From a virus (lineage: Duplodnaviria > Caudoviricetes), in IMG/VR virus record IMGVR_UViG_2724679359_000002, positions 8,398 to 72,397 of that record: a DNA stretch of 64,000 nt; one strand, given 5' to 3'. The notes beneath the pieces were generated by a model. The model was not told the origin of the DNA and ran no database searches. It worked only from the letters and a program-made list of their open reading frames with translations. The translations under genes were made by a program, and so were the position numbers. Every line of letters starts with the position of its first letter. Within the stretch, counting starts at the first letter, position 1. Shown in pieces: positions 14,032 to 57,379 of the stretch.

Positions 14032-15795
14032 ATGGAAAGCGTTGCTATCAATGCCGATTTAGACCCCCGCCGTCAAGCCATGTATCTGTATTGGCAAGGG
14101 CTGCGTATCGCCCGAATTGCGGAAATGATCGGTGAGAAAGCCGTCACGGTACACAGTTGGAAGCGCCGCGACAAGTGGGACGCGTACGGGCCATTGGATC
14201 AGATGCAGCTGACCACGGCAGCGGAATATTGCCGCCTGATAATGAAGCCTGTCAAGGAGCCGAAAGACTACAAAGAGATTGATTTGCTGGGCCGACAAGC
14301 CGAGCGTCACGCTCGCATTGGTAAATACAATGATGGCGGCAACGAGGCCGATCTCAACCCCAATATTGAGAAGCGCAACAGCGGAACACGCAAGGCACCG
14401 CAGAAAAATATATTCAGTGAGGCGCAAGTTGCCAGGCTGAAAGATATTTTCAATGAATCCATGTTCGACTATCAGCGCAACTGGTATGAGGCTGGTTTAT
14501 CGCCTGATTTCCGCATTCGTAACTTTTTAAAATCGCGCCAAGTCGGTGCAACCTACTTTTTCTCATGGGAAGCGCTGCTCGATGCGCTCGACACTGGCCG
14601 CAACCAAATGTTTGTTTCGGCCTCAAAAGCGCAGGCGCACCAGTTTAAAAATTATATTGTGGCGGCGGCGCGTCAAGTGGATGTTGATTTGCGCGGTGAG
14701 GTAATTATTTTGCCCAATGGCGCTGAAATGCACTTTCTCGGCACTAACGCCAGCACCGCACAGGGCCGCCCCGGCAATCTCTATCTGGATGAGTATTTTT
14801 GGATACCCGGCTTTCAGAAGTTACGTCGTGCCGCATCGGGTATGGCCTCGCAGAAAAAGTATCGCGCTACCTATTTTTCCACCCCGTCCAGCACCTCACA
14901 TGAGGCTTACCCGTTCTGGGCTGGCACCCTATTTAACAAAGGTAAAGCAAAAGATAAACGCATTGAAATTGATGTCAGCTACCCCCGATTGGCGGCTGGC
15001 CGGTTGTGTGAGGATAAGCAGTACCGGCAGATTGTCACTATTGAGGACGCACTGAAAGGCGGCTGCGACCTGTTTGATATTGATGAATTACGCAATGAAA
15101 ACAGTGATGAAGATTTTGAAAACCTGTTTATGTGCGGCTTTATTGATGATAACGCCTCCACGTTCAAACTGGCCGAAATGCAGCGTTGCATGGTGGATAG
15201 CTGGGAAAAATGGACAGACGTCAAACTGCTGGCGCTACGCCCGTTTGGTGATAGGCCGGTGTGGATTGGCTACGACCCGGCCAGCACCGGTGATAGTGCC
15301 GGTTGTGCGGTGATTGCGCCGCCAGTGGTGGCGGGCGGTAAATTCAGGGTATTGGAGCGCCATCAGTGGAAAGGGATGGATTTTGCTGACCAGGCCAGCA
15401 ATATCAAAAAAATCACCGAGCGCTATAACGTCACTTACATCGGTATTGATGATACCGGGCTGGGCCGCTCCGTGACGCAATTAGTACGGCAATTCTTCCC
15501 GGCGGTTAACGCCATTCACTACAGCTTAGAAATGAAAGCTGACCTGATTTATAAGGCCAAAAATATTATTCATGGCGGCCGTCTGGAGTTTGACGCGGGC
15601 TGCATTGATATTGCCACCGCGTTTATGTCTATCCGCAAAACCATGACCGCCACCGGCCGCAACGCCACTTTTGTCACTGACCGCTCAAAAGACGTCAGCC
15701 ACGGTGATGTGGCCTGGGCCATTATGCACGCCTTATTCCATGAGCCTCTTGAGGGCATTAACAGCAATAACACCAGTGTGATGGAGATATATTAA
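14032..15795 (+). CDS. P: Terminase large (ATPase) subunit P
   Basis: DPRRQA..LYWQG, KSRQVGAT, LYLDEYFW, GYDP, HGDVAWA. Confidence 0.95.
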   Translation: MESVAINADLDPRRQAMYLYWQGLRIARIAEMIGEKAVTVHSWKRRDKWDAYGPLDQMQLTTAAEYCRLIMKPVKEPKDYKEIDLLGRQAERHARIGKYNDGGNEADLNPNIEKRNSGTRKAPQKNIFSEAQVARLKDIFNESMFDYQRNWYEAGLSPDFRIRNFLKSRQVGATYFFSWEALLDALDTGRNQMFVSASKAQAHQFKNYIVAAARQVDVDLRGEVIILPNGAEMHFLGTNASTAQGRPGNLYLDEYFWIPGFQKLRRAASGMASQKKYRATYFSTPSSTSHEAYPFWAGTLFNKGKAKDKRIEIDVSYPRLAAGRLCEDKQYRQIVTIEDALKGGCDLFDIDELRNENSDEDFENLFMCGFIDDNASTFKLAEMQRCMVDSWEKWTDVKLLALRPFGDRPVWIGYDPASTGDSAGCAVIAPPVVAGGKFRVLERHQWKGMDFADQASNIKKITERYNVTYIGIDDTGLGRSVTQLVRQFFPAVNAIHYSLEMKADLIYKAKNIIHGGRLEFDAGCIDIATAFMSIRKTMTATGRNATFVTDRSKDVSHGDVAWAIMHALFHEPLEGINSNNTSVMEIY

Positions 15796-16835
15796 TGAGT
15801 AAACGCAACAGGAAAAGCCGCCCGATCAAAGTAACAGCGGCCATAGCGGGCAATAGCACACCACAAGCCGAGACGTTTACGTTTGACGACCCGATCCCGA
15901 TGATGGATCAGCGCGATATTCTGGATTATCTGGAATGTGCAGTAATGGATCGCTGGTATGAGCCGCCGGTATCATTCAACGGTCTGGCTAAATCATTCCG
16001 CGCGGCGGTGCATCATAGCTCGCCTATCTATATGAAACGTAATGTACTGGTTAGCCTGTTTGAGCCGCACCGGCTGCTATCAAAGCAGGATTTTAGCCGC
16101 TATGCGCTGGATTTTTTGGTGTTCGCCAACTCATTTTTAGAGGTCCGCTATAACCGGCTGGGTGGTATTATGAAACTGGTTCCCAGCCCGGCAAAATATA
16201 CCCGCCGAGGCGTGGAGACTGACACCTATTGGTATGTCTCATCCTATGCCAACCCACACCCTTTTGAAGCAAACAGCGTTTTTCACCTGCTAGACCCGGA
16301 TATTAACCAAGAGATCTACGGCGTTCCTGAATATCTCGCCTCGCTAAATTCGACCTGGCTTAATGAAGCCGCAACGCTATTTCGCCGTAAATATTATCTG
16401 AATGGTAGTCATGCCGGATTTATCCTGTATATGAACGACGCCGCCCACAAACAGGAGGATATCGACGCCTTACGCAAGGCGCTGAAAGAATCCAAAGGGC
16501 CGGGCAATTTCCGCAATCTGTTTATGTACGCCCCAGCCGGTAAAAAAGACGGGATACAGGTGATCCCATTAGCAGAAGTGGCGGCGAAAGATGAATTCGC
16601 CAGTATTAAGAATGTCACCCGCGACGACCAGCTCGCTATGCAGCGAGTACCACCGCAATTGATGGGTATTTTACCCAACAACACCGGCGGATTTGGTGAT
16701 GTGGAAAAGGCCGCGCGAGTATTCGCCATTAACGAACTGGCCCCCTTGCAGGAGCGGCTGATGGAAATTAATGACTGGGTAGGGGAGGAGGTGGTGAGGT
16801 TCCGCCCCTATGATTTATTGGTTTCTGCGGGCTAA
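15795..16835 (+). CDS. Q: Portal protein Q
   Basis: WYEPP, HHSS, NQEIYGVPEY, NGSHAGFI, GGFGDVEK. Confidence 0.95.
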   Translation: MSKRNRKSRPIKVTAAIAGNSTPQAETFTFDDPIPMMDQRDILDYLECAVMDRWYEPPVSFNGLAKSFRAAVHHSSPIYMKRNVLVSLFEPHRLLSKQDFSRYALDFLVFANSFLEVRYNRLGGIMKLVPSPAKYTRRGVETDTYWYVSSYANPHPFEANSVFHLLDPDINQEIYGVPEYLASLNSTWLNEAATLFRRKYYLNGSHAGFILYMNDAAHKQEDIDALRKALKESKGPGNFRNLFMYAPAGKKDGIQVIPLAEVAAKDEFASIKNVTRDDQLAMQRVPPQLMGILPNNTGGFGDVEKAARVFAINELAPLQERLMEINDWVGEEVVRFRPYDLLVSAG

Positions 16836-46468: not shown

Positions 46469-46672
46469 TCAATCCCATAATTGAACGGTTTCACGTTGGG
46501 CCGCCGGTGCCATGTCGGGCAACTCCACCGGATAACCATGGGGCAGAATGGCCCCCAGTTCCGACAGCCCCGGATTCGCGTCATAGACTTGCTCAACCAC
46601 CTCTTGTGTGCGGCCGTAATAGCGCCAGCACAGTGCGTCGAGCGTGTCGCCTTGCAACGCGTTGACCTGCAT
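46469..46672 (-). CDS. X: Tail protein X
   Basis: QGDTLDALCWRYYGRT...LWD. Confidence 0.92.
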   Translation of the reverse strand: MQVNALQGDTLDALCWRYYGRTQEVVEQVYDANPGLSELGAILPHGYPVELPDMAPAAQRETVQLWD

Positions 46673-47145
46673 CAGATAAGGCCAATAATGTTGTGCGGCT
46701 TACCGGCAATGTTGCGAATGCTAATTCGCGCGTCACGCCACAACTCATCAACGGTACTTTCAATGGCCTCCGCGCGTTTATCACCGCGCGCACTGGCGTC
46801 ATAGCCGCGATAACGCTCGGCCAACAGTGCAGCCGTAATGGCACAGACCGCGCGCTGGTACTCGGCCAACTGGATGCTCTCGCCGTCCAGTTGCTCGGCC
46901 TGCACCTCGGCCAGTGTTTTAAAGCCTGCCGCCATCTGGTCACGGCGGTACTCGTACAGTTCGGCGTTAACCTCGGCAATAGCGCTTTTGATGGTGAAGC
47001 GCAGGCGCTCGGCGGTGACTGTTCCCTCAAGGCGCAACAGCTCGCGCAGCTTTATCGGGTCAACCGCAGGCCAGAAAAAGGTATTTTCAATCACCGGTTC
47101 GGCCGTTTTGTCAGGCCGTGGCGCGGGGATAACAACAGTGGTCAT
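46672..47145 (-). CDS. L: Head completion protein L
   Basis: I.NTFFWP, AIAEVNAEL, YRGYDAS..G. Confidence 0.9.
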   Translation of the reverse strand: MTTVVIPAPRPDKTAEPVIENTFFWPAVDPIKLRELLRLEGTVTAERLRFTIKSAIAEVNAELYEYRRDQMAAGFKTLAEVQAEQLDGESIQLAEYQRAVCAITAALLAERYRGYDASARGDKRAEAIESTVDELWRDARISIRNIAGKPHNIIGLI

Positions 47146-47169
47146 GGCAACCTCAATAGCAGAATGGGT

Positions 47170-47225
47170 GGGCGGTGGACGATGGCGTTAACAAGGTAAA
47201 CCCTGTTGCGGCCATCGTGCCGCCC
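47170..47225. other. Conserved M-L intergenic stem-loop (prophage 2)
   Basis: GGGCGGTGGACGATGGC...GCCATCGTGCCGCCC. Confidence 0.5.
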
Positions 47226-47244
47226 GGCTCGGGGAGCGTTCGGT

Positions 47245-47904
47245 TTAGCGGCTGGCGGCGTTCTTTAATTTCACGGCCAGTCGCTCAATGTCTTTTTTGA
47301 CGCCACAACCGGTATGCAGTTGGAGTGCGCGGTGAAGATGGGACAGGGCCAACTCGCCCCGACCACTGTCACGCAGCACATAACCGGTGATTTTGTGCAG
47401 TTTGGCCCGCACTTGATCGGGCATGTCTTCATCTTCCATCAGCTCAATGGTTTGCAGCAGAGGCTCAATATCAATCGGCTTACCGGTGGCATAGGCGCGC
47501 GCCGCAGCGTCCGCGACTTCCTCGGCAATCAGGTAGGCGGTAGAGCGGGTAAAGCGGTCAGTTGGCACTAGCTGATAACGCAGGGCATAACGGGCGATAT
47601 CCAGTGCACCGGGGATATCCCCGGCATCCAGCCGCCAAATCATGATGGTCATGACAATGGCGTCCTGCGCGCCTTTCCCCTCACTCAACACGCCAGAGAT
47701 CCACGGCAGGTAGTCCGGCAATAACTGCCGCTTCAGCTCGGCTTTGCGCTCTTGTGAACGCACCTGTTTCAGCTTGCGCTTATCTTCATTGAGCTTGAGC
47801 AACATCAACTCGTAGCCGGTGGCGTGGCGCAGCGGGTTATCCCGCAGTTGTGAGGCAGTAATAGCCGACTGCCTCAGAAAGTGGCGGCGCGCAGGACTGG
47901 TCAT
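47245..47904 (-). CDS. M: Terminase small subunit M
   Basis: SPARRH, GAQD, WRLDAGD, DMPDQVRAKLHK. Confidence 0.92.
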   Translation of the reverse strand: MTSPARRHFLRQSAITASQLRDNPLRHATGYELMLLKLNEDKRKLKQVRSQERKAELKRQLLPDYLPWISGVLSEGKGAQDAIVMTIMIWRLDAGDIPGALDIARYALRYQLVPTDRFTRSTAYLIAEEVADAAARAYATGKPIDIEPLLQTIELMEDEDMPDQVRAKLHKITGYVLRDSGRGELALSHLHRALQLHTGCGVKKDIERLAVKLKNAASR

Positions 47905-47907
47905 GGC

Positions 47908-49137
47908 TTATTTGCTCCCTTTGGCGGCCGGTGCTTCTTCTGTGGTTTCCGGGGGAGTCTCAGTAGCGGTTTCCGCTGTGACATCCTCCGGGTTCGACGC
48001 CACTTTCACCGCTGCCATGATCGCGGCGGCAAGACCGTCATAGTTTGGGGCTTCCGATACCATCAATGCGGCCGCAGCCGGTGCCGAGGCGATGTCTTTT
48101 TTCGCCGGTAAGATTTCGATGTTTTCCACCAGACAGCCACAGGCGTAATCTTCCACCACATAATCCTGTTTAATGGATTCGTAGTTTTCGATACGGTCTC
48201 GCTTGGCGTTCTCATCAATATGGCGGCGGTGTGAGTCTTCCAGCCAGTAAATAGACAGGTTATCGAGGCGGGTGATAAAGAACGCGTTAGCCGGGAAGAA
48301 CGGCACACGGACAGCCGGTAAATTGCCGATACGCTTCTGGCTGATAATCAGGTCAGCGGCGAGGGTTTCGCTGTTTTCCTGCTCCTTGTTGACGATAGGG
48401 AAATATTTATCCTGCATCAACTGACGGCCAGTGATAACCACCAGTTCAGGGTCTTCCTGATGCCATTCAGCAATCATGGTATTGGTAGCATCCATCACCA
48501 GCGCATCCAAGTTGGCATAATCGCCACCATGGCCGACACGGATTTTTTCCGATACTACCGTGCCATCTTCGCCAACGACTTTGCTCATCACGCGGATTGG
48601 CGCGTTGAGGCGGTATTTTTGCAACCAACCCGGCGCGATATCCTGCAACAGTGGGTTTAGTGCGCGGTTGGATGTCTTGGCGCGGTGGGTACCATTGAAG
48701 CCCGCCATAATGCGGTCAAGAGCCTGCCGCTTGATAATGGCGTCGCGTAAACGGGTCTGGAAGTCCTGATAACGCGCCCACAGGTCGAGGGTGTTATAGC
48801 GAATGTGGAAATCGTAGTTCACCTGTTCACAGAAATATTTCTCACTGTCCAGTGAGGCAAATTCGGCAGTTTCGCGTTCGTCGCCGCCGTCAGTATCGGT
48901 GGTGCTGGCAACCGAACCATTGACGCCAAGGCCGACCTTTTCGGCGGTCAGCTCGGCGACTGGCACAATATTGATGCGGCTCAGAAATTCTGAGGACTCT
49001 TGCACGCGGGTCATGATGGTTTGCGTAACGGAGGGTTCAACGCTGAATTTTTTATTCAGGTCGCCAGTTTCTACCCCGTTCAGCTCGGCTTGACGGGTTA
49101 GATAGGCATTAAATTTAAAACGGGTTGCTGGGCGCAT
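47908..49137 (-). CDS. N: Major capsid protein N with Ala/Thr/Glu-rich C-terminal extension
   Basis: RQALDRIM.GFNG, NLDALV, LDNLSIYW. Confidence 0.95.
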   Translation of the reverse strand: MRPATRFKFNAYLTRQAELNGVETGDLNKKFSVEPSVTQTIMTRVQESSEFLSRINIVPVAELTAEKVGLGVNGSVASTTDTDGGDERETAEFASLDSEKYFCEQVNYDFHIRYNTLDLWARYQDFQTRLRDAIIKRQALDRIMAGFNGTHRAKTSNRALNPLLQDIAPGWLQKYRLNAPIRVMSKVVGEDGTVVSEKIRVGHGGDYANLDALVMDATNTMIAEWHQEDPELVVITGRQLMQDKYFPIVNKEQENSETLAADLIISQKRIGNLPAVRVPFFPANAFFITRLDNLSIYWLEDSHRRHIDENAKRDRIENYESIKQDYVVEDYACGCLVENIEILPAKKDIASAPAAAALMVSEAPNYDGLAAAIMAAVKVASNPEDVTAETATETPPETTEEAPAAKGSK

Positions 49138-49213
49138 AATAATCCTGATTCAGTTAAATAACGTGTTAATGAAATAGCAAGCGGGCCGCACAACCGGCGG
49201 CCAGTGATCCCGA

Positions 49214-50068
49214 TTAGCAGTCGGTCAATACATCGTTCTGGTTGTTGCCGCCGGTGGATTCCGGGCGTTTGGTCTGGCTAAAGTTTTCAGTGATAGAAAG
49301 TTTGGTTTCTAGCGACGTAACCCCTTGTTTTCCCTTTTCAATGCTCTGTTTCAGCTCCACCACTTGGTCTGCAAATTGCTTCTCAATGGTCGTAAAGCGG
49401 GCTTCAATGGTTTCTTCCTGCTCCTGCACATGCACTGCCACGGCATTCACCGCCTCATGCACATCATTAAAACGGGCGTCGTCGGTTGCTTGCTTGCGGC
49501 TGAATACTGACTTCACCATGTTGAGTAAGGTGACACCCGGCTCGGCCACGTCTTCAAATTCCAGTTGCACTTCAACTGCCGCCGAGAAAAAGTTATCCGG
49601 GTTGGATTTACGCGAGGCCAGTGGGTTGTGTTTGGCTTTGACGCTGAACTCTAAAATTTCCGTGCCAAGACTATTAGGGTCATCGGTCACCGCCAGACCG
49701 ACCAGATAGGCTTTACCGCTGTTGGCAAAGTTCGGACTAATCTCCATCGAGGTGTAAACTTTTTGGCGGCTTTTATTCAGTAGTACCAGTTCGTCTGTTG
49801 GGTTGATTTGGGCAAAAAGTGCGCGCTTACCCTTCAGTGCTGAATCATCTTCAATAGTTTCAGCTTTCAGACCAACGACATCGCCATAACGGCGGAATGA
49901 GCTGTCAGGTGACACACTTCTTATGTGTTCCAGATTGATGCGGCAACCGTAGACGCGCGGGTCAAAGGTTTCGGCCATTTGGTTGATATCGTTAACGTCA
50001 ATCACTCGCCCGTCGCAGGTATCACCCTCAACGCCGATACGAAAATACTTAGAAACTTTCTTAGCCAT
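49214..50068 (-). CDS. O: Capsid scaffolding protein O
   Basis: FRIGVEGDTCDGR, INLEH, GLAVTDDP.SLG, LTDC. Confidence 0.93.
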   Translation of the reverse strand: MAKKVSKYFRIGVEGDTCDGRVIDVNDINQMAETFDPRVYGCRINLEHIRSVSPDSSFRRYGDVVGLKAETIEDDSALKGKRALFAQINPTDELVLLNKSRQKVYTSMEISPNFANSGKAYLVGLAVTDDPNSLGTEILEFSVKAKHNPLASRKSNPDNFFSAAVEVQLEFEDVAEPGVTLLNMVKSVFSRKQATDDARFNDVHEAVNAVAVHVQEQEETIEARFTTIEKQFADQVVELKQSIEKGKQGVTSLETKLSITENFSQTKRPESTGGNNQNDVLTDC

Positions 50069-50153
50069 GAGCGGCTCCATTCAGTGTGATTATGGTTATT
50101 CGGTTCGGGGCTTAGTTTCCTGATGTAAGGCGGCAGCAACAACGAAAGCCAGT

Positions 50154-50218: not shown

Positions 50219-51991
50219 ATGAATACGACACCGAGCACCATCATCAGCGACCCACGGCGACAGGCGGCCTTGCTTTACTGGCAGGGCTTCTCTGTGCGCC
50301 AAATCGCAGACCAGCTAGCCCTTAAATCGCCGACTGTGCAGAGCTGGAAGAAGCGCGACGGGTGGGATGCGATTGCGCCCATTTCCCGCGTGGAAACCAG
50401 CATGGAAGCGCGGTTGATTCAACTCATCATGAAAGACGCCAAAGAGGGGCGGGACTTTAAAGAGATTGACCTGTTAGGCCGTCAGATTGAACGGCTGGCG
50501 CGGGTGAACCGCTACAGCCAGACCGGCAGCGAAGCTGATTTAAATCCGAACGTAGCGAACCGCAACAAAGGGGAGCGCAAGCCCCCGGATAAAAACCTGT
50601 TCAGTGAATCCGCGATTGAAAAACTGGAATCTATTTTTCACGAAAATATCTTTGATTATCAGCGCAACTGGTTTGATGCCGGGCTACAACACCGTATCCG
50701 CAATATCCTGAAATCGCGCCAGATTGGCGCAACGTTCTTCTTTGCCCGCGAAGCGCTATTGGATGCCATCACCACCGGGCGTAATCAGATTTTCTTATCT
50801 GCCAGTAAAGCACAGGCGCATGTGTTCAAAAGCTACATTATCGACTTTGCCCGCATGGTTGACGTTGACCTGAAAGGTGACCCGATGGTGCTACCCAACG
50901 GGGCGCGCCTGTTCTTTCTCGGCACGAACGTGCGCACCGCGCAGAGCTACACCGGCAATCTCTATCTTGACGAGTATTTCTGGATACCCAAGTTTCAGGA
51001 ACTACGCAAAGTCGCCAGCGGCATGTCATTACACAAAAAATGGCGTACCACCTATTTCTCCACGCCGTCGAGTCTGGCGCACAGCGCCTATCCGTTCTGG
51101 TCTGGTGAGTTGTTCAATAAAGGCCGCCGCAATAAATCCGACCATATTCAACTGGATTTAAGCCACAGCCATTTAGCCCGTGGTGCGCTGTGTGCTGATG
51201 GTCAGTGGCGGCAGATTGTCACGGTTGAAGATGCACTGGCGGGCGGCTGTAACCTGTTTGACCTCAACCAGCTCTCACTGGAATACGGCCCGTCAGAATA
51301 TCAAAACCTGTTGATGTGCGAGTTTGTCGATGACCAGGCGTCAGTGTTCCCGTTCGCCGAGTTGCAGGCTTGCATGGTCGACAGTTTGGAAGAGTGGGAA
51401 GACTACAACCCGTATTCGTTGCGGCCGTTTGGGCATCGCCCGGTGTGGATTGGTTACGACCCGTCCGAGGCCAACGGCGGCGACAGTGCCGGGTGTGCGG
51501 TGATCGCGCCGCCAATGGTGCCGGGCGGCAAGTTCCGCGTATTGGAGCGCCACCAGTGGAAAGGGATGGATTTTGAAGCGCAGGCCAAACATATCGAAGA
51601 GCTGACGCAGAAGTATTGTGTGGAATATATCGGTATCGATGCGACTACCGTCGGCCAAGGCGTTTTCCAGTTGGTGCGCCAGTTCTTCCCGGCAGCAAGG
51701 GAAATCAAATACACCCCTGAAATCAAAACCGCCATGGTGCTGAAAGCCAAGCACACCATTAATAACGGCCGTCTGGAATATGACACTGGCCACACCGATA
51801 TCACCCAGTCATTTATGGCCATTCGCAAGACTATGACCGCCAGCGGCAAGAGTTCGACTTATGTTGCCAGCCGCAGTGAAGAAGCCAGCCACGCCGATGT
51901 GGCGTGGGCGATTATGCACGCCCTGTTAAATGAACCCCTTACCGCGACATATGGCGGTCACAGCCCTAACTTCTTGGAGTTTTACGGATGA
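50219..51991 (+). CDS. P: Terminase large subunit P
   Basis: KSRQIGAT, LYLDEYFW, GYDP, HADVAWA. Confidence 0.95.
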   Translation: MNTTPSTIISDPRRQAALLYWQGFSVRQIADQLALKSPTVQSWKKRDGWDAIAPISRVETSMEARLIQLIMKDAKEGRDFKEIDLLGRQIERLARVNRYSQTGSEADLNPNVANRNKGERKPPDKNLFSESAIEKLESIFHENIFDYQRNWFDAGLQHRIRNILKSRQIGATFFFAREALLDAITTGRNQIFLSASKAQAHVFKSYIIDFARMVDVDLKGDPMVLPNGARLFFLGTNVRTAQSYTGNLYLDEYFWIPKFQELRKVASGMSLHKKWRTTYFSTPSSLAHSAYPFWSGELFNKGRRNKSDHIQLDLSHSHLARGALCADGQWRQIVTVEDALAGGCNLFDLNQLSLEYGPSEYQNLLMCEFVDDQASVFPFAELQACMVDSLEEWEDYNPYSLRPFGHRPVWIGYDPSEANGGDSAGCAVIAPPMVPGGKFRVLERHQWKGMDFEAQAKHIEELTQKYCVEYIGIDATTVGQGVFQLVRQFFPAAREIKYTPEIKTAMVLKAKHTINNGRLEYDTGHTDITQSFMAIRKTMTASGKSSTYVASRSEEASHADVAWAIMHALLNEPLTATYGGHSPNFLEFYG

Positions 51992-52752
51992 AATCAATGA
52001 CTTTTACTGCTGGTCAAGTTGACGGCCTGCGCGAACATTTCGAAAACGCGGCCTTTGACTATCAAAAGACGTGGTATCGGGTGGGGCAGACCGGCGTAGC
52101 CCGAAATATCACCAAGTCGCGCCAGATTGGGGTCGACTGGCTTTTTGCTTTTGAAGCGTTACTGGATTCCCTCACCACCGGGCGCAATCAGCATTTTTTA
52201 ACCTGCACCAGACCAAGCGCCTTGAATACCCGCGCTTATATTGCCGAGTTCTGTCGGGTCGTTGGGGTAAACGTGAACCCATGTTCGCTGAATAATATTC
52301 TGTTAGGTAATGGCGCACTTATCGCCTTTCACGGTGAAAACAGTCACGCCGCTGCTCATGCCGGGAATGTGTACCTGGGTGAATATGCATGGGCTAAAAA
52401 CCCACGTTCAATACTGCTCATGGCTAAGGGGATGGCAATGCACAAAAATCATCGTTTAACACTCTATACCACGCCCTCCCGCTCACATACCGCGTTCAAG
52501 ATTTGGAACGGCTCACTGGGCCATCCACGAAAAGTCGCACCGGTGATACACACCGATAACGGCGTTTTTTGTGCTGATGGCGTATTCCGTCAATCGGTTA
52601 CGGCTGATGATGCTACTCAGCAAGGCGGCATGTTATGGGGAAAAAATTGGGATAAAGATTGGCTGAAAAAACACATGACGGCGGATGATTTCAAGCTCTT
52701 ATATTTGTGCGACTGGTCACAAGCGGCAAACAATGCAGAGGAAGTAAAATGA
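51988..52752 (+). CDS. ATPase-domain-only terminase paralogue with degenerate Walker B
   Basis: FDYQ..W, KSRQIG, TTGRNQ, VYLGEYAW, TTPS, CADG..RQ; ATGA overlaps with P and Q. Confidence 0.85.
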   Translation: MKSMTFTAGQVDGLREHFENAAFDYQKTWYRVGQTGVARNITKSRQIGVDWLFAFEALLDSLTTGRNQHFLTCTRPSALNTRAYIAEFCRVVGVNVNPCSLNNILLGNGALIAFHGENSHAAAHAGNVYLGEYAWAKNPRSILLMAKGMAMHKNHRLTLYTTPSRSHTAFKIWNGSLGHPRKVAPVIHTDNGVFCADGVFRQSVTADDATQQGGMLWGKNWDKDWLKKHMTADDFKLLYLCDWSQAANNAEEVK

Positions 52753-53786
52753 GTAAGCGCAAAGGCCGCAAGGCATTAAGTCGCCCGGCAACTAATCACA
52801 CCGCCAGCCAACAGCAGCCGGTGGAGGCTTTCACCTTTGGCGAACCCTCCGCCGTTCTCGACAAGCGGGAAATACTGGATTACATCGAATGCACCGGCAA
52901 CGGTAAATGGTATGACCCGCCGATTAGCTTTGACGGGCTGGCGCGCAGTTTCCGGGCGGCGGTGCATCACAGCTCACCGCTGTATGTGAAACGCAACATA
53001 CTGGCAAGCACATTTATCCCGCATGCAATGCTCAGTCAGCAAGCCTTTAGCCGCTATGCGCTGGATTATCTGGTGTTCGGCAATGCGTTTTTAGAGGTGC
53101 GCCGTAACCAACTGGGCGCACCACTGCGCCTCGACCCCAGCCCGGCCAAGTACACCCGCCGGGGACTTGAAAAAGATTGCTATTGGTTTGTCCAGAACTG
53201 GAAAGATGAACACCTGTTCGAAGCCGGGAGCGTTTTTCACCTGATAGAACCGGATATCAATCAGGAGCTTTACGGCCTGCCGGAATATCTCAGCGGCTTA
53301 AATTCGGCTTGGCTCAATGAAGCGGCCACGCTGTTCCGTCGCAAGTATTACCAGAATGGCGCTCACGCGGGATACATCCTGTATATGACTGACGCCGCGC
53401 AAAGTAGCAGCGATATTGAGGCAATGCGTAAAGCGATGCGCGACACCAAAGGGTTAGGCAATTTTCGCAACCTGTTTATGTACGCGCCCAACGGTAAAAA
53501 AGACGGCATCCAGATTTTACCGTTGAGCGAAGTCGCCACCAAAGATGACTTTTTTAATATCAAGAACGCCACCCGCGACGACCTGCTTAGTGTTCACCGG
53601 GTGCCGCCGCAGATGATGGGGATTATTCCCAACAATACCGGCGGATTCGGTGACGTGGCGAAAGCCTCACAAGTGTTTGTCCGTAACGAGTTAACGCCGT
53701 TGCAAGAACGATTGAAAGAGGTGAATGACTGGATAGGGCAAGAGGTGATCCGGTTCAAGCCTTATGAACTGATAAGTGAGGAATAA
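52749..53786 (+). CDS. Q: Portal protein Q
   Basis: MSKRK start, HHSSP, NQELYGLPEY, GGFGDV. Confidence 0.95.
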   Translation: MSKRKGRKALSRPATNHTASQQQPVEAFTFGEPSAVLDKREILDYIECTGNGKWYDPPISFDGLARSFRAAVHHSSPLYVKRNILASTFIPHAMLSQQAFSRYALDYLVFGNAFLEVRRNQLGAPLRLDPSPAKYTRRGLEKDCYWFVQNWKDEHLFEAGSVFHLIEPDINQELYGLPEYLSGLNSAWLNEAATLFRRKYYQNGAHAGYILYMTDAAQSSSDIEAMRKAMRDTKGLGNFRNLFMYAPNGKKDGIQILPLSEVATKDDFFNIKNATRDDLLSVHRVPPQMMGIIPNNTGGFGDVAKASQVFVRNELTPLQERLKEVNDWIGQEVIRFKPYELISEE

Positions 53787-55096: not shown

Positions 55097-57379
55097 TTAA
55101 TCATCGAATTCCGGCCAGTCGGACAAGGCCGGATATTGAATAACAGTGTCATCGAACGTCATTGAAGCCCCACGGGCTAACGATTCCAGCTCCCAGCGCT
55201 GGACGCTGATATCTTTCAGCAGTAAATCATTGCGAATTTGGGAGATGCGCTGGCGTTCTTCGCGGGTTAAGCGGGCAGATGGCGCAATAATTCGGCCCTT
55301 GGTGGGGTCATAACTGCGTTGTATCTTGCTTATCGTTGGCTGTTTCTCTTTAACGCGGGCCACAATCGCCCTCACGGCGGCAGTGTCCGACCAGTCAATA
55401 ACGGCGTCCGGTGGGTATTCCATCGCCACCACAGGCGTTTCAGCCTGCCCGCTGGGGTCATTTGGCGCTTGGGTGTTTTCACCTAACCCACAGTTATTGA
55501 CAGGACTCCGAGGCGCGCCAGAGGCGCTTTTCAAAGTCAAAAGCTCAACGTCAACGGCACCAGCAACGATGCGCCATTGGGTTGTGCGGGTTTCATGAAT
55601 ATGGTCAGCGCCCAAATGCGGTGCGTAGATACCGACGACTTTCTGTACTTCTTCATCGTAGGCGTTGAGTTCATCGGCGACGCGCTTGGCTAACCGGACG
55701 GTCTGATTGCCGCAATTGGTGCCACCTTGCGCCATGATGTAGGCAGCAAAATCACCCTCATCAGCCGCATGACGCACAGCTTCTACGGTTTCGTCGAAAG
55801 TCTCGGCCAGACTAATAGAACGGATACGGCGACACTCGCGATAGACTCCCATGGAGGGAAGCCCAATCGGGCGAAACTGAGGGATGCGCCACGTTGCCGC
55901 CCACGCTGTTACCGCCGCAGCGGAGTCAGTCAGCAGTTCACCGGTTTCATGATCACGTTCACCCTCAAGCGCATAGCCGTCGATATTCTTGGCAATGTAT
56001 TTAGCGATGTAGCCAGCGGCCCCGCCTTTGTTCATGTGCTTACACTCAAAGCGGTATTTAGCGGCTCCGCGCTCGTCACCGTCTTCTTTCAACGCATAGC
56101 GGCGCATGATGTCGATTACCTGCTGGCGCTGGCGGCGTTGGCAAAACAGCATCATGTGCCAGTGCGGTGTACCGTCATGGTGTGGCTCAACTACGCGCAT
56201 TCCGTAGACGCTTAATTCGTTGTCTTTAAAGGCGGTGCGCATTTTGCTCCAAATCTTGCAGAGATAGCGCTGGCCGTCTTTGGGTGAATAGGCTTCATCA
56301 TTCCACTTATGATTAAGCTGGACTTTCTCATTGTCGCCTTTCCCCACAACGCGAGTCGGGTGATATTTTGACGGGGTGGTGATGGTCAGGAACATACCGA
56401 CGTGCTTTTGCCCGGCAGCATATTTTTCCGTGAACGCGATGGTGTTCATTAACTCCATGCGGCGAATTTCTGGATTAGAAATACTCGCCATCACCTTATC
56501 AATCAGGTCGATGCGCTCACCGGTTTCAATGTTTTCTAACTGGCAGCTTTTGAGATATTCCAGATTAGACTGGCGACGCGCAAACACCTCACGGATAGCC
56601 TGCTTACTGGCATAAGAAGACGCTGACTTATCACGGCTGACATTACCGACAGCAATCAATAACGCCTCCCGCCAGCGTGTTCTCTGCGCTTTGAGTTTGC
56701 GCTCCCACCACTCAGGGTTAACCAGCCGTGACAGACTGGCGATAGCAGACGTGATATCTAACCGGCCTTTCAGATATTTGCGCCAGTGCATTGGGGTGAT
56801 ATTAAAAGCGCGCGCCATTCTGGCAAGATCGCCGAATATCCGTACCTGCGTATCGGCCTGCAATAAAACGGCCCTGTCCCCCTGATTAGCCTTAATGCAT
56901 TCATCACAGTGATGGTTGTACGCCACCATTAGCTCATCACCGATTTTGCGGGCAAAGCGGCGCAGCTCTTTATCATGCATACCCGCTAGGCTGGCATAGG
57001 TTGAGGCATCAGTGGAAAAGCTCATTGACGCACTGAGGCGCATAACATTTTTACTATTGACCACCTGAATGCGCGGCCAGATACGCTGGTCAAAGACAAA
57101 TACCAGCCATTTATTAGCGTCGTTTAGCCCTTGATTGGCTAACAGGTATTGATAGCGAGAAATAAACTGGCTACGCAGGAAGTGAGGCAGATTATTAATA
57201 TTGGCTAAAACAGCTTGCCCCTGAATCAGTTGTTCACGGGTAAGCGGTCTTGATGGTGCAAGGGTTTGGCGCGGTTTGCTGCCGGGGTAGGCATAAGCAG
57301 GAACAGCAGCGCCGCTGCCCGGATAAGGCAACGGCGGAGTTGGGGCAATGCGGCCACGCATATTATTAATGCTGGTCAT
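55097..57379 (-). CDS. A: Replication endonuclease A
   Basis: PSKYH, EPHHDGTPHWH, YIAKYIAKNIDG, RSPVNNC. Confidence 0.94.
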   Translation of the reverse strand: MTSINNMRGRIAPTPPLPYPGSGAAVPAYAYPGSKPRQTLAPSRPLTREQLIQGQAVLANINNLPHFLRSQFISRYQYLLANQGLNDANKWLVFVFDQRIWPRIQVVNSKNVMRLSASMSFSTDASTYASLAGMHDKELRRFARKIGDELMVAYNHHCDECIKANQGDRAVLLQADTQVRIFGDLARMARAFNITPMHWRKYLKGRLDITSAIASLSRLVNPEWWERKLKAQRTRWREALLIAVGNVSRDKSASSYASKQAIREVFARRQSNLEYLKSCQLENIETGERIDLIDKVMASISNPEIRRMELMNTIAFTEKYAAGQKHVGMFLTITTPSKYHPTRVVGKGDNEKVQLNHKWNDEAYSPKDGQRYLCKIWSKMRTAFKDNELSVYGMRVVEPHHDGTPHWHMMLFCQRRQRQQVIDIMRRYALKEDGDERGAAKYRFECKHMNKGGAAGYIAKYIAKNIDGYALEGERDHETGELLTDSAAAVTAWAATWRIPQFRPIGLPSMGVYRECRRIRSISLAETFDETVEAVRHAADEGDFAAYIMAQGGTNCGNQTVRLAKRVADELNAYDEEVQKVVGIYAPHLGADHIHETRTTQWRIVAGAVDVELLTLKSASGAPRSPVNNCGLGENTQAPNDPSGQAETPVVAMEYPPDAVIDWSDTAAVRAIVARVKEKQPTISKIQRSYDPTKGRIIAPSARLTREERQRISQIRNDLLLKDISVQRWELESLARGASMTFDDTVIQYPALSDWPEFDD

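Follow-up and report, generated by a model that had tools for sequence, protein, structure and literature searches.

What is a second, shortened copy of a large terminase gene doing between the terminase and portal genes of a tailed-phage genome? The question is raised by a 254-amino-acid (aa) open reading frame (ORF) in a 64,000-nucleotide stretch, referred to here as the window, of the IMG/VR virus record IMGVR_UViG_2724679359_000002 (Duplodnaviria; Caudoviricetes). The ORF lies between P, which encodes the large terminase gpP, and Q, which encodes the portal gpQ. We call it window W, and the protein family to which it belongs W, after gene W of coliphage 186. Our data show that window W is the Yersinia-lineage orthologue of that gene, and that W is a conserved, selected paralogue, consisting of the ATPase fold alone, lodged between terminase and portal in this classical model phage and in many enterobacterial prophages. 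Judging from its motifs window W is most likely a pseudo-ATPase, and we see about an even chance that W acts as a non-catalytic accessory subunit which binds gpP and/or the portal in the packaging machinery.

In a BLASTP comparison with the neighbouring gpP, residues 6-243 of window W line up with gpP residues 128-369 (36% identity, E 1e-45), and the six motifs that the original prediction had matched by eye across roughly residues 125-370 (FDYQ, KSRQIG, TTGRNQ, TPS, CADG..RQ and a final L.C(D/E)) all fall into register. Pfam recognizes Terminase_6N alone (residues 40-204, E 3.6e-17), with no Terminase_5 and no Terminase_6C, so that the N-terminal helix-turn-helix (HTH) region and the nuclease domain are indeed missing, as had been proposed, and the protein ends at the ATPase-nuclease hinge of the gpP alignment. 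This single domain, at a length of about 225-256 aa, is what we take to mark the W type. Among PHROG families it scores highest against phrog_3746 (E 1e-112), which is named ‘terminase large subunit’; however, with neither an N-terminal nor a nuclease domain, a window-type W cannot be a terminase subunit on its own.

The alignment also confirms the suspected change in Walker B, from GNLYLDEYFW in gpP to GNVYLGEYAW in window W, and reveals a second motif change that had been overlooked, at the end of Walker A, where KSRQIGAT of gpP becomes KSRQIGVD. The motifs occupy positions K43-S-R-Q-I-G-V-D50 (Walker A), V128-Y-L-G131-E132 (Walker B) and T161-T-P-S164 (motif C), names that we assign on the assumption that the T4 gp17 pattern is SRQLGKT / IYIDE / TTS, and which agree with the start of the Pfam match at residue 40. 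It is because both Mg2+-holding residues are replaced (by D50 and G131) that we read window W as a pseudo-ATPase. A P2 gpP-type large terminase shares with W a homologous ATPase domain of the same fold as that of T4 gp17, and in contrast to window W possesses the HTH, the nuclease and both Mg ligands. The proposal that the protein is catalytically dead is therefore plausible from its residues, the more so as the catalytic Glu132 has become Ala in a copy 99% identical to it (L016 4001-4765), although elsewhere this Glu persists, as do the Lys, Arg and Gly of the P-loop, all four being invariant in a 32-sequence alignment of the family. An AlphaFold2 model built from that alignment (predicted local distance difference test, pLDDT, 86; predicted TM-score, pTM, 0.85) has the predicted fold of a large terminase (TerL) ATPase domain. 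Its top matches in the PDB are the T4 gp17 ATPase with ATP or ADP (2o0h/2o0j; TM 0.67), followed by the TerL ATPase domains of D6E and P74-26 and the terminase chain of an Avs3 complex (8dgc_E). A PDB sequence search with the W-family profile returned a chance match only (E 0.65).

To identify the family we compared window W with 50,697 phage records by tblastn. Matches were obtained in 488 of these, nearly all through gpP, and 16 top records, from nine phages, carry a second match, to a short ORF that separates the homologue of P from that of Q. These counterparts are 86-89% identical to window W in vB_YenM_56.17 and vB_YenM_201.16, and 42-47% identical in 186, Midge, EtG, PSP3, SI22, SW9 and BIS20. 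With 186 W itself the identity is 44%, versus 36-39% with gpPs. The 186 ORF (248 aa; AAC34147.1 / NP_052250.1) is annotated in GenBank U32222 (1215..1961) as ‘W protein; similar to Orf12’, in the order Orf12 (‘P2 P homologue’), W, Orf2 (‘P2 Q homologue’), within the p12 operon, which depends on B and is closed by terminator tW. Going by that product name, we take 186 W to be the late gene defined by conditional-lethal mutants; the papers that define it are said to be those of Hocking and Egan in 1982 and Portelli et al. in 1998. Like window W, the proteins of 186, PSP3 (gp2), EtG, Midge, SW9, SI22 and BIS20 are ATPase-only paralogues of ~250 aa, in the same P/Q slot and orientation, where stop codons overlap the following start codons, and they fall in the same clade in both of our trees. 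They differ from it in keeping KSRQIGAT and YLDE where window W has KSRQIGVD and YLGE. The counterparts in vB_YenM_56.17 and vB_YenM_201.16 (YP_010664280.1 in NC_070915) show allelic differences only, with 254 aa, the same P-W-Q layout and the same motif states (in vB_YenM_56.17, GAD at the end of Walker A and LGE in Walker B); both phages form plaques, according to PMC9224151. Thus the paralogue is an extra gene relative to P2, as originally described, and a standard one in 186-like phages. Window W is a variant of a known but uncharacterized kind of gene, annotated in 186 since the 1990s and present in its Yersinia form in two published phage genomes, and is not new. Our literature search, made on main texts, found no paper on the function of W or on its rewired motifs. 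In RefSeq/PGAP the genes are labelled ‘terminase large subunit’ or ‘terminase large subunit domain-containing protein’, and in the two Yersinia phages ‘terminase large subunit / terminase, ATPase subunit GpP’, a label that misleads whether W is a packaging subunit or a counter to terminase-sensing immunity.

The gene is tightly joined to its neighbours. As had been noted, both junctions are ATGA overlaps (ggATGAaa at 51988, where P stops and W starts, and aaATGAgt at 52749, where W stops and Q starts), with a GGAG element before the W start and GAGGA before that of Q, whereas in the first of the two prophages in the window P and Q are joined directly through TAATG, as had also been reported. 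The coordinates of these features are collected in Table 1. The window comprises two tandem P2-like prophages (1-31500 and 31500-64000), of which only the second carries W; this second prophage is 186-like, its replication gene at 55097-57379 being of the gpA type. In the ORF list the portal begins at a GTG at 52707 (359 aa), within W, but the ATG at 52749 is the likely start: read from there, the protein fits the PHROG portal profile beginning with its first residue, and the GTG frame further upstream is absent from several related loci.

Table 1. Features of the P-W-Q locus and of the loci and sequences compared with it (window coordinates, except where identifiers are given).
Feature	Position or identifier	Strand	Basis and remarks
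Window W, 254-aa ATPase-domain-only large-terminase paralogue	51988..52752	+	ATG start; ORF list, BLASTP, Pfam
gpP large terminase, 590 aa	50219..51991	+	Terminase_5, Terminase_6N and Terminase_6C; canonical KSRQIGAT, LYLDE
gpQ portal, 345 aa from ATG 52749	52749..53786	+	Start overlaps W stop
GGAG Shine-Dalgarno-like element, ~8 nt before W start, within the end of P	51970..51987	+	Sequence reading
P-Q locus of prophage 1, for comparison: P of 587 aa, Q of 346 aa, no W	14032..16835	+	P 14032..15795, Q 15795..16835
L, M, N and O genes of the second prophage	46672-50080	minus	ORF list
Short ATPase-only forms outside the W clade	P0118, P0125, P0129, P0132, P0138, P0144, P0171, P0181 and others		

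To place W relative to gpP we searched 1.84 billion representative sequences with a profile, obtaining 555 matches, of which the best 150 comprised full-length gpPs and ~50 short proteins with the ATPase domain only. From the 148 rows covering at least 190 profile positions (rows of shorter coverage were left out), 16 near-duplicates were removed, and a FastTree phylogeny of the remaining 132 ATPase domains splits 30 short W rows, made up of the Yersinia clade, the 186 type and a diverged ‘type 2’, from the 102 others with a branch support of 100. The same split was recovered for 23 W rows with IQ-TREE under the site-heterogeneous LG+C20 model (67 hand-chosen rows; SH-aLRT 99). W proteins are consequently one clade, apart from full-length gpP. 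Whereas K..R..G.[T/S] and DE are retained in every one of the 78 representative full-length gpP sequences, canonical Walker motifs occur in 9 of the 30 W rows (the 186 type), and the other 21, including the branch of the window, end Walker A in G-x-D and have G, S, P or A followed by E in Walker B, a state that defines a sub-type within the clade and is no ground for exclusion from it. As regards the conservation of the Asp-to-Gly change in Walker B, Gly131 is fixed within the 27 Yersinia-clade copies, but across the sub-type the position is G, S, P or A, and the 186 type retains Asp. Asp50 is replaced in three of the 27, by Lys in L039 and L038 and by Asn in L024. Since one change on the tree suffices to explain the Walker A Asp, and the 21 rows bearing it provide one independent pair, we regard the two motif changes as a single event that has been long maintained, and reject replicated, independent covariation between them. 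Outside the W clade lie 24 other short ATPase-only gpP-like forms (Table 1), several of which have no Lys in the P-loop or no catalytic Glu; they may include fragments as well as pseudo-ATPase paralogues of independent origin, and a scan for their genomic context based on P0144 yielded full-length gpP loci only.

The distribution of W is uneven. Among 5.8 billion proteins we found 34 relatives of 139-445 aa, with the intact ones (245-254 aa) coming from Yersinia, Hafnia, Enterobacter, Pectobacterium and Edwardsiella, and a scan of genomes gave 9 loci, all with the P-W-Q layout, in one of which (Candidatus Symbiopectobacterium) W is frameshifted. A scan of IMG/VR with window W recovered the gene in 25 of 25 Yersinia-clade loci, together with 4 distant loci in which P and Q are joined directly. 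The corresponding scan with an alignment of diverged members, whose search patterns bias the sample towards W, gave 46 P-W-Q loci, one W-Q locus at a contig end and 11 P-Q loci (58 loci, L064-L121, analyzed out of 80, the other 22 being mostly re-fetched Yersinia contigs); two of these 47 W loci are contigs already counted. In contrast, the broad IMG/VR sample drawn with the gpP-like P0144 pattern contained 74 P-Q and 6 P-only loci and none with W. A 241-aa type of W is found in phages vB_YpM_MLG42 and Escherichia 500465-1, and by megablast in 17 of 5,426 complete E. coli genomes; in the same set the 186 type is found in 8. From these counts we conclude that most of the family lacks W, and that it is frequent in certain P2-like lineages of enterobacteria. 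In the set compared, the W-less gpP closest to a W-bearing one is 78% identical to it. The lineages of W are only 26-45% identical to one another, and while the gpPs found beside the W genes of the clade are 82-86% identical to that of the window, the W proteins there are 35-45% identical to window W.

This divergence is not that of a gene in decay. W is intact in 23 of 23 complete Yersinia-clade loci, this set being those with complete P, W and Q after exclusion of three loci interrupted by the end of a contig, one whose Q is broken and one in which W is duplicated. Over these 23 loci the mean ratio of nonsynonymous to synonymous divergence (dN/dS, by Nei-Gojobori) is 0.244 for W, as compared with 0.032 for P and 0.024 for Q, at similar dS (0.27 for P, 0.25 for W and 0.34 for Q). 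A codon bootstrap over the 18 distinct alleles gives 0.257 (0.190-0.352) for W, 0.031 for P and 0.026 for Q, with 0.027 for the ATPase domain of P taken alone. The same contrast is seen in four Pectobacterium 186-type loci (W 0.149 versus P 0.024), where a Q value of 0.59 was discarded on the ground that the four Q genes are of unequal length and were not codon-aligned. W is hence under purifying selection, yet evolving ~7x faster than P and Q. Among 21 alleles 99 of its 254 residues vary, and no 30-codon window along the gene exceeds a dN/dS of 0.38, so that pervasive positive selection can be rejected at the level of windows. The core (residues 106-165) is lowest, at 0.06-0.16, and the least constrained parts are the helices of residues 61-105 and the C-terminal lid (~0.35). 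The sequence of W is, in other words, far freer than that of its neighbours, and its ‘catalytic’ residues are not all untouchable. The frameshifted W, in the Candidatus Symbiopectobacterium prophage (L015 4001-4750), is interrupted after about residue 38, and P and Q are there cut to 492 and 169 aa; the packaging module of this prophage is decaying as a whole.

These results bear directly on what W could be. That it is a functionless remnant of a partial tandem duplication of P might be supposed from its altered motifs and from the broken symbiont copy, but the intactness of the gene, an upper bound of 0.35 on its dN/dS, the persistence of the family across deeply divergent lineages and the truncation of P and Q alongside the broken W leave this explanation hardly credible, and we reject neutral debris, in line with the original prediction that the gene is maintained and co-translated. 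The same prediction had gone on to propose an immune decoy, whereby W would bind terminase-sensing defences (Avs1-3, Upx) without triggering them, or soak them up, and so shield gpP. Such an activity would amount to a new counter-defence principle, and some of our data are compatible with it: the modelled fold is that read by Avs2 and Avs3, an Avs3-bound terminase chain is among its structural matches, and the dN of W is ~7x that of its neighbours. On the other hand, window W shares just 36% of its residues with the gpP it would have to mimic, and no 30-codon window of the gene has a dN/dS above 0.38. The patchy, hotspot-like presence expected of an anti-defence decoy is not what we see, as W has never been found missing among close relatives, and it resides in a late packaging operon, coupled to P, under the name (in U32222) of a genetically defined late gene of 186. 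NCBIfam and PADLOC held no family for the three W proteins tested, the PADLOC library being one of defence and not anti-defence families. In a 2026 preprint (bioRxiv 10.64898/2026.04.30.721860), EcAvs2 and Upx are described as recognizing the ATPase domain alone, and EcAvs2 as contacting the gamma-phosphate of the ATP of terminase and the hydration shell of its Mg, features altered in window W. The same preprint, however, describes the isolated domain as sufficient to activate both sensors and the ATPase-only terminase look-alike of T4, vs.8, as toxic with EcAvs2. In this one published test, then, ATPase-only terminase-like proteins act as triggers and not as inhibitors, and we consider a decoy quite unlikely. 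T4 vs.8, like stand-alone TerL-ATPase-like proteins of other phage families, resembles W in being a separate ATPase-like protein that is related to the large terminase of the same phage, but vs.8 is encoded elsewhere than between terminase and portal and is reported to have canonical Walker motifs. It was rejected as a relative of W (hhalign probability 0.2%, with sub-threshold Pfam matches only) and is best seen as an independent case.

W might also serve in competition between phages, as a dominant-negative protein that would enter or cap the terminase assemblies of rival P2-like phages or of P4-type satellites and poison their packaging, the phage's own gpP being tolerant. A ring poison would be expected to look like an ATPase-only copy devoid of Mg ligands, fast evolution would fit such a role, and the window does hold two tandem P2-like prophages, one alone with W. 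Nevertheless, W is kept in every close relative, with or without a second prophage, the fully canonical motifs of the 186 type suit a poison poorly, and 186 is reportedly a helper for P4, so that we judge this explanation very unlikely. Somewhat different is the notion of an active second ATPase, in which W would hydrolyze ATP alongside gpP as its catalytic partner, and Mg would be held by the Walker A Asp in place of the missing Walker B one. In its favour are the canonical 186-type motifs, the invariance of the remaining catalytic residues in the family alignment and the retention of the Walker A Asp in 21 of 21 deeply diverged type-2 representatives. Against this, Lys or Asn replaces the Asp in three Yersinia-clade copies and Ala the catalytic Glu in L016, the residue at the Walker B position varies (G, S, P or A), and the supposed swap, being one change on the tree, has no independent replication. 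We hold this to be unlikely as well.

We therefore favour, with the even chance given above, a non-catalytic accessory subunit of the packaging machinery, close to the motor-modulating subunit that was the second option of the original prediction, on account of the position of W in the packaging operon, its translational coupling, its intactness in close relatives, the late-gene name of its 186 counterpart and the loss of the Mg ligands. In such a scheme one old duplication of the ATPase domain of a P2/186-type large terminase would have given rise to W, which would have been lodged between P and Q ever since and coupled translationally to both. In the Yersinia-type branch the changes of Walker A Thr to Asp and of Walker B Asp to Gly would then have replaced both usual Mg2+ holders, leaving a protein that may at most bind nucleotide and would not drive translocation. 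W would presumably be produced late in infection, in concert with gpP and gpQ, and act by binding, so aiding the assembly or the regulation of the terminase-portal packaging complex. We infer, in each case, the loss of hydrolysis, the identity of the partner bound and the part played in packaging. To our knowledge viral DNA-packaging motors are rings of a single kind of large-terminase subunit, and we know of no other non-catalytic TerL partner, which W would be the first to provide if this reading is right. The clamp-loader delta-prime and F1 alpha subunits are paralogues that have lost catalysis, keep the fold and serve an active subunit as structural or regulatory partners; they offer an analogy only, a ring of W with gpP being purely hypothetical.

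Several of our findings weigh against an accessory subunit. P2, prophage 1 of the window and 74 of 74 P+Q loci in the broad IMG/VR sample package their DNA without W, and so W is not a general requirement of the packaging motor. Nor would one expect of a tight, obligate interface a protein that evolves ~7x faster than P and Q with no matching changes in either, and this fast evolution also fits a role in conflict. Comparison of 13 W-bearing with 27 W-less gpPs revealed a single alignment column (230) with disjoint residues, which makes no case for a gpP signature tied to the presence of W. Furthermore, the Walker A Asp could, from its position in the motif, still hold Mg, and that 186 W is essential is read from a GenBank product name. 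A speculative possibility joins the accessory subunit to the immune hypothesis in a heteromeric packaging machine. W would here serve as a stator or regulator without catalysis, occupying a fixed position next to gpP, either on the portal or within the complex that cleaves cos, and its Mg site would have been rewritten because a subunit freed from hydrolysis can shed the ‘immutable’ ATP-Mg features that are read by Avs-type sensors. The altered Mg site would on this speculation be a non-catalytic subunit's way to escape sensing, a combination that we regard as unlikely. Phage 186 provides a ready genetic system for the question of what W does.

Contigs assembled from RNA libraries span the whole of P-W-Q in one piece in X5 and X9 (184 differing letters) and in two pieces in X1, which does not imply transcription. 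The raw reads of RNA run X21 match P and Q only in part and with low similarity, leaving W wholly uncovered, and for this reason we assign them to a different prophage. Three further loci depart from the usual layout. In L038 (4001-5128; its contig is also L106) W is 375 aa long, with residues ~62-182 repeated in frame as a 121-aa tandem duplication and the frame open throughout, which could be real or an artefact of assembly. The gpP of an Erwinia tracheiphila contig (L014 2234-4001) is divided over three ORFs of 218, 132 and 222 aa, with W (248 aa) and Q (340 aa) intact. Finally, in the Yersinia-clade locus L033 (4850-6320) it is the portal that is split, into ORFs of 199 and 274 aa that are separated by additional DNA, and here too W is intact.

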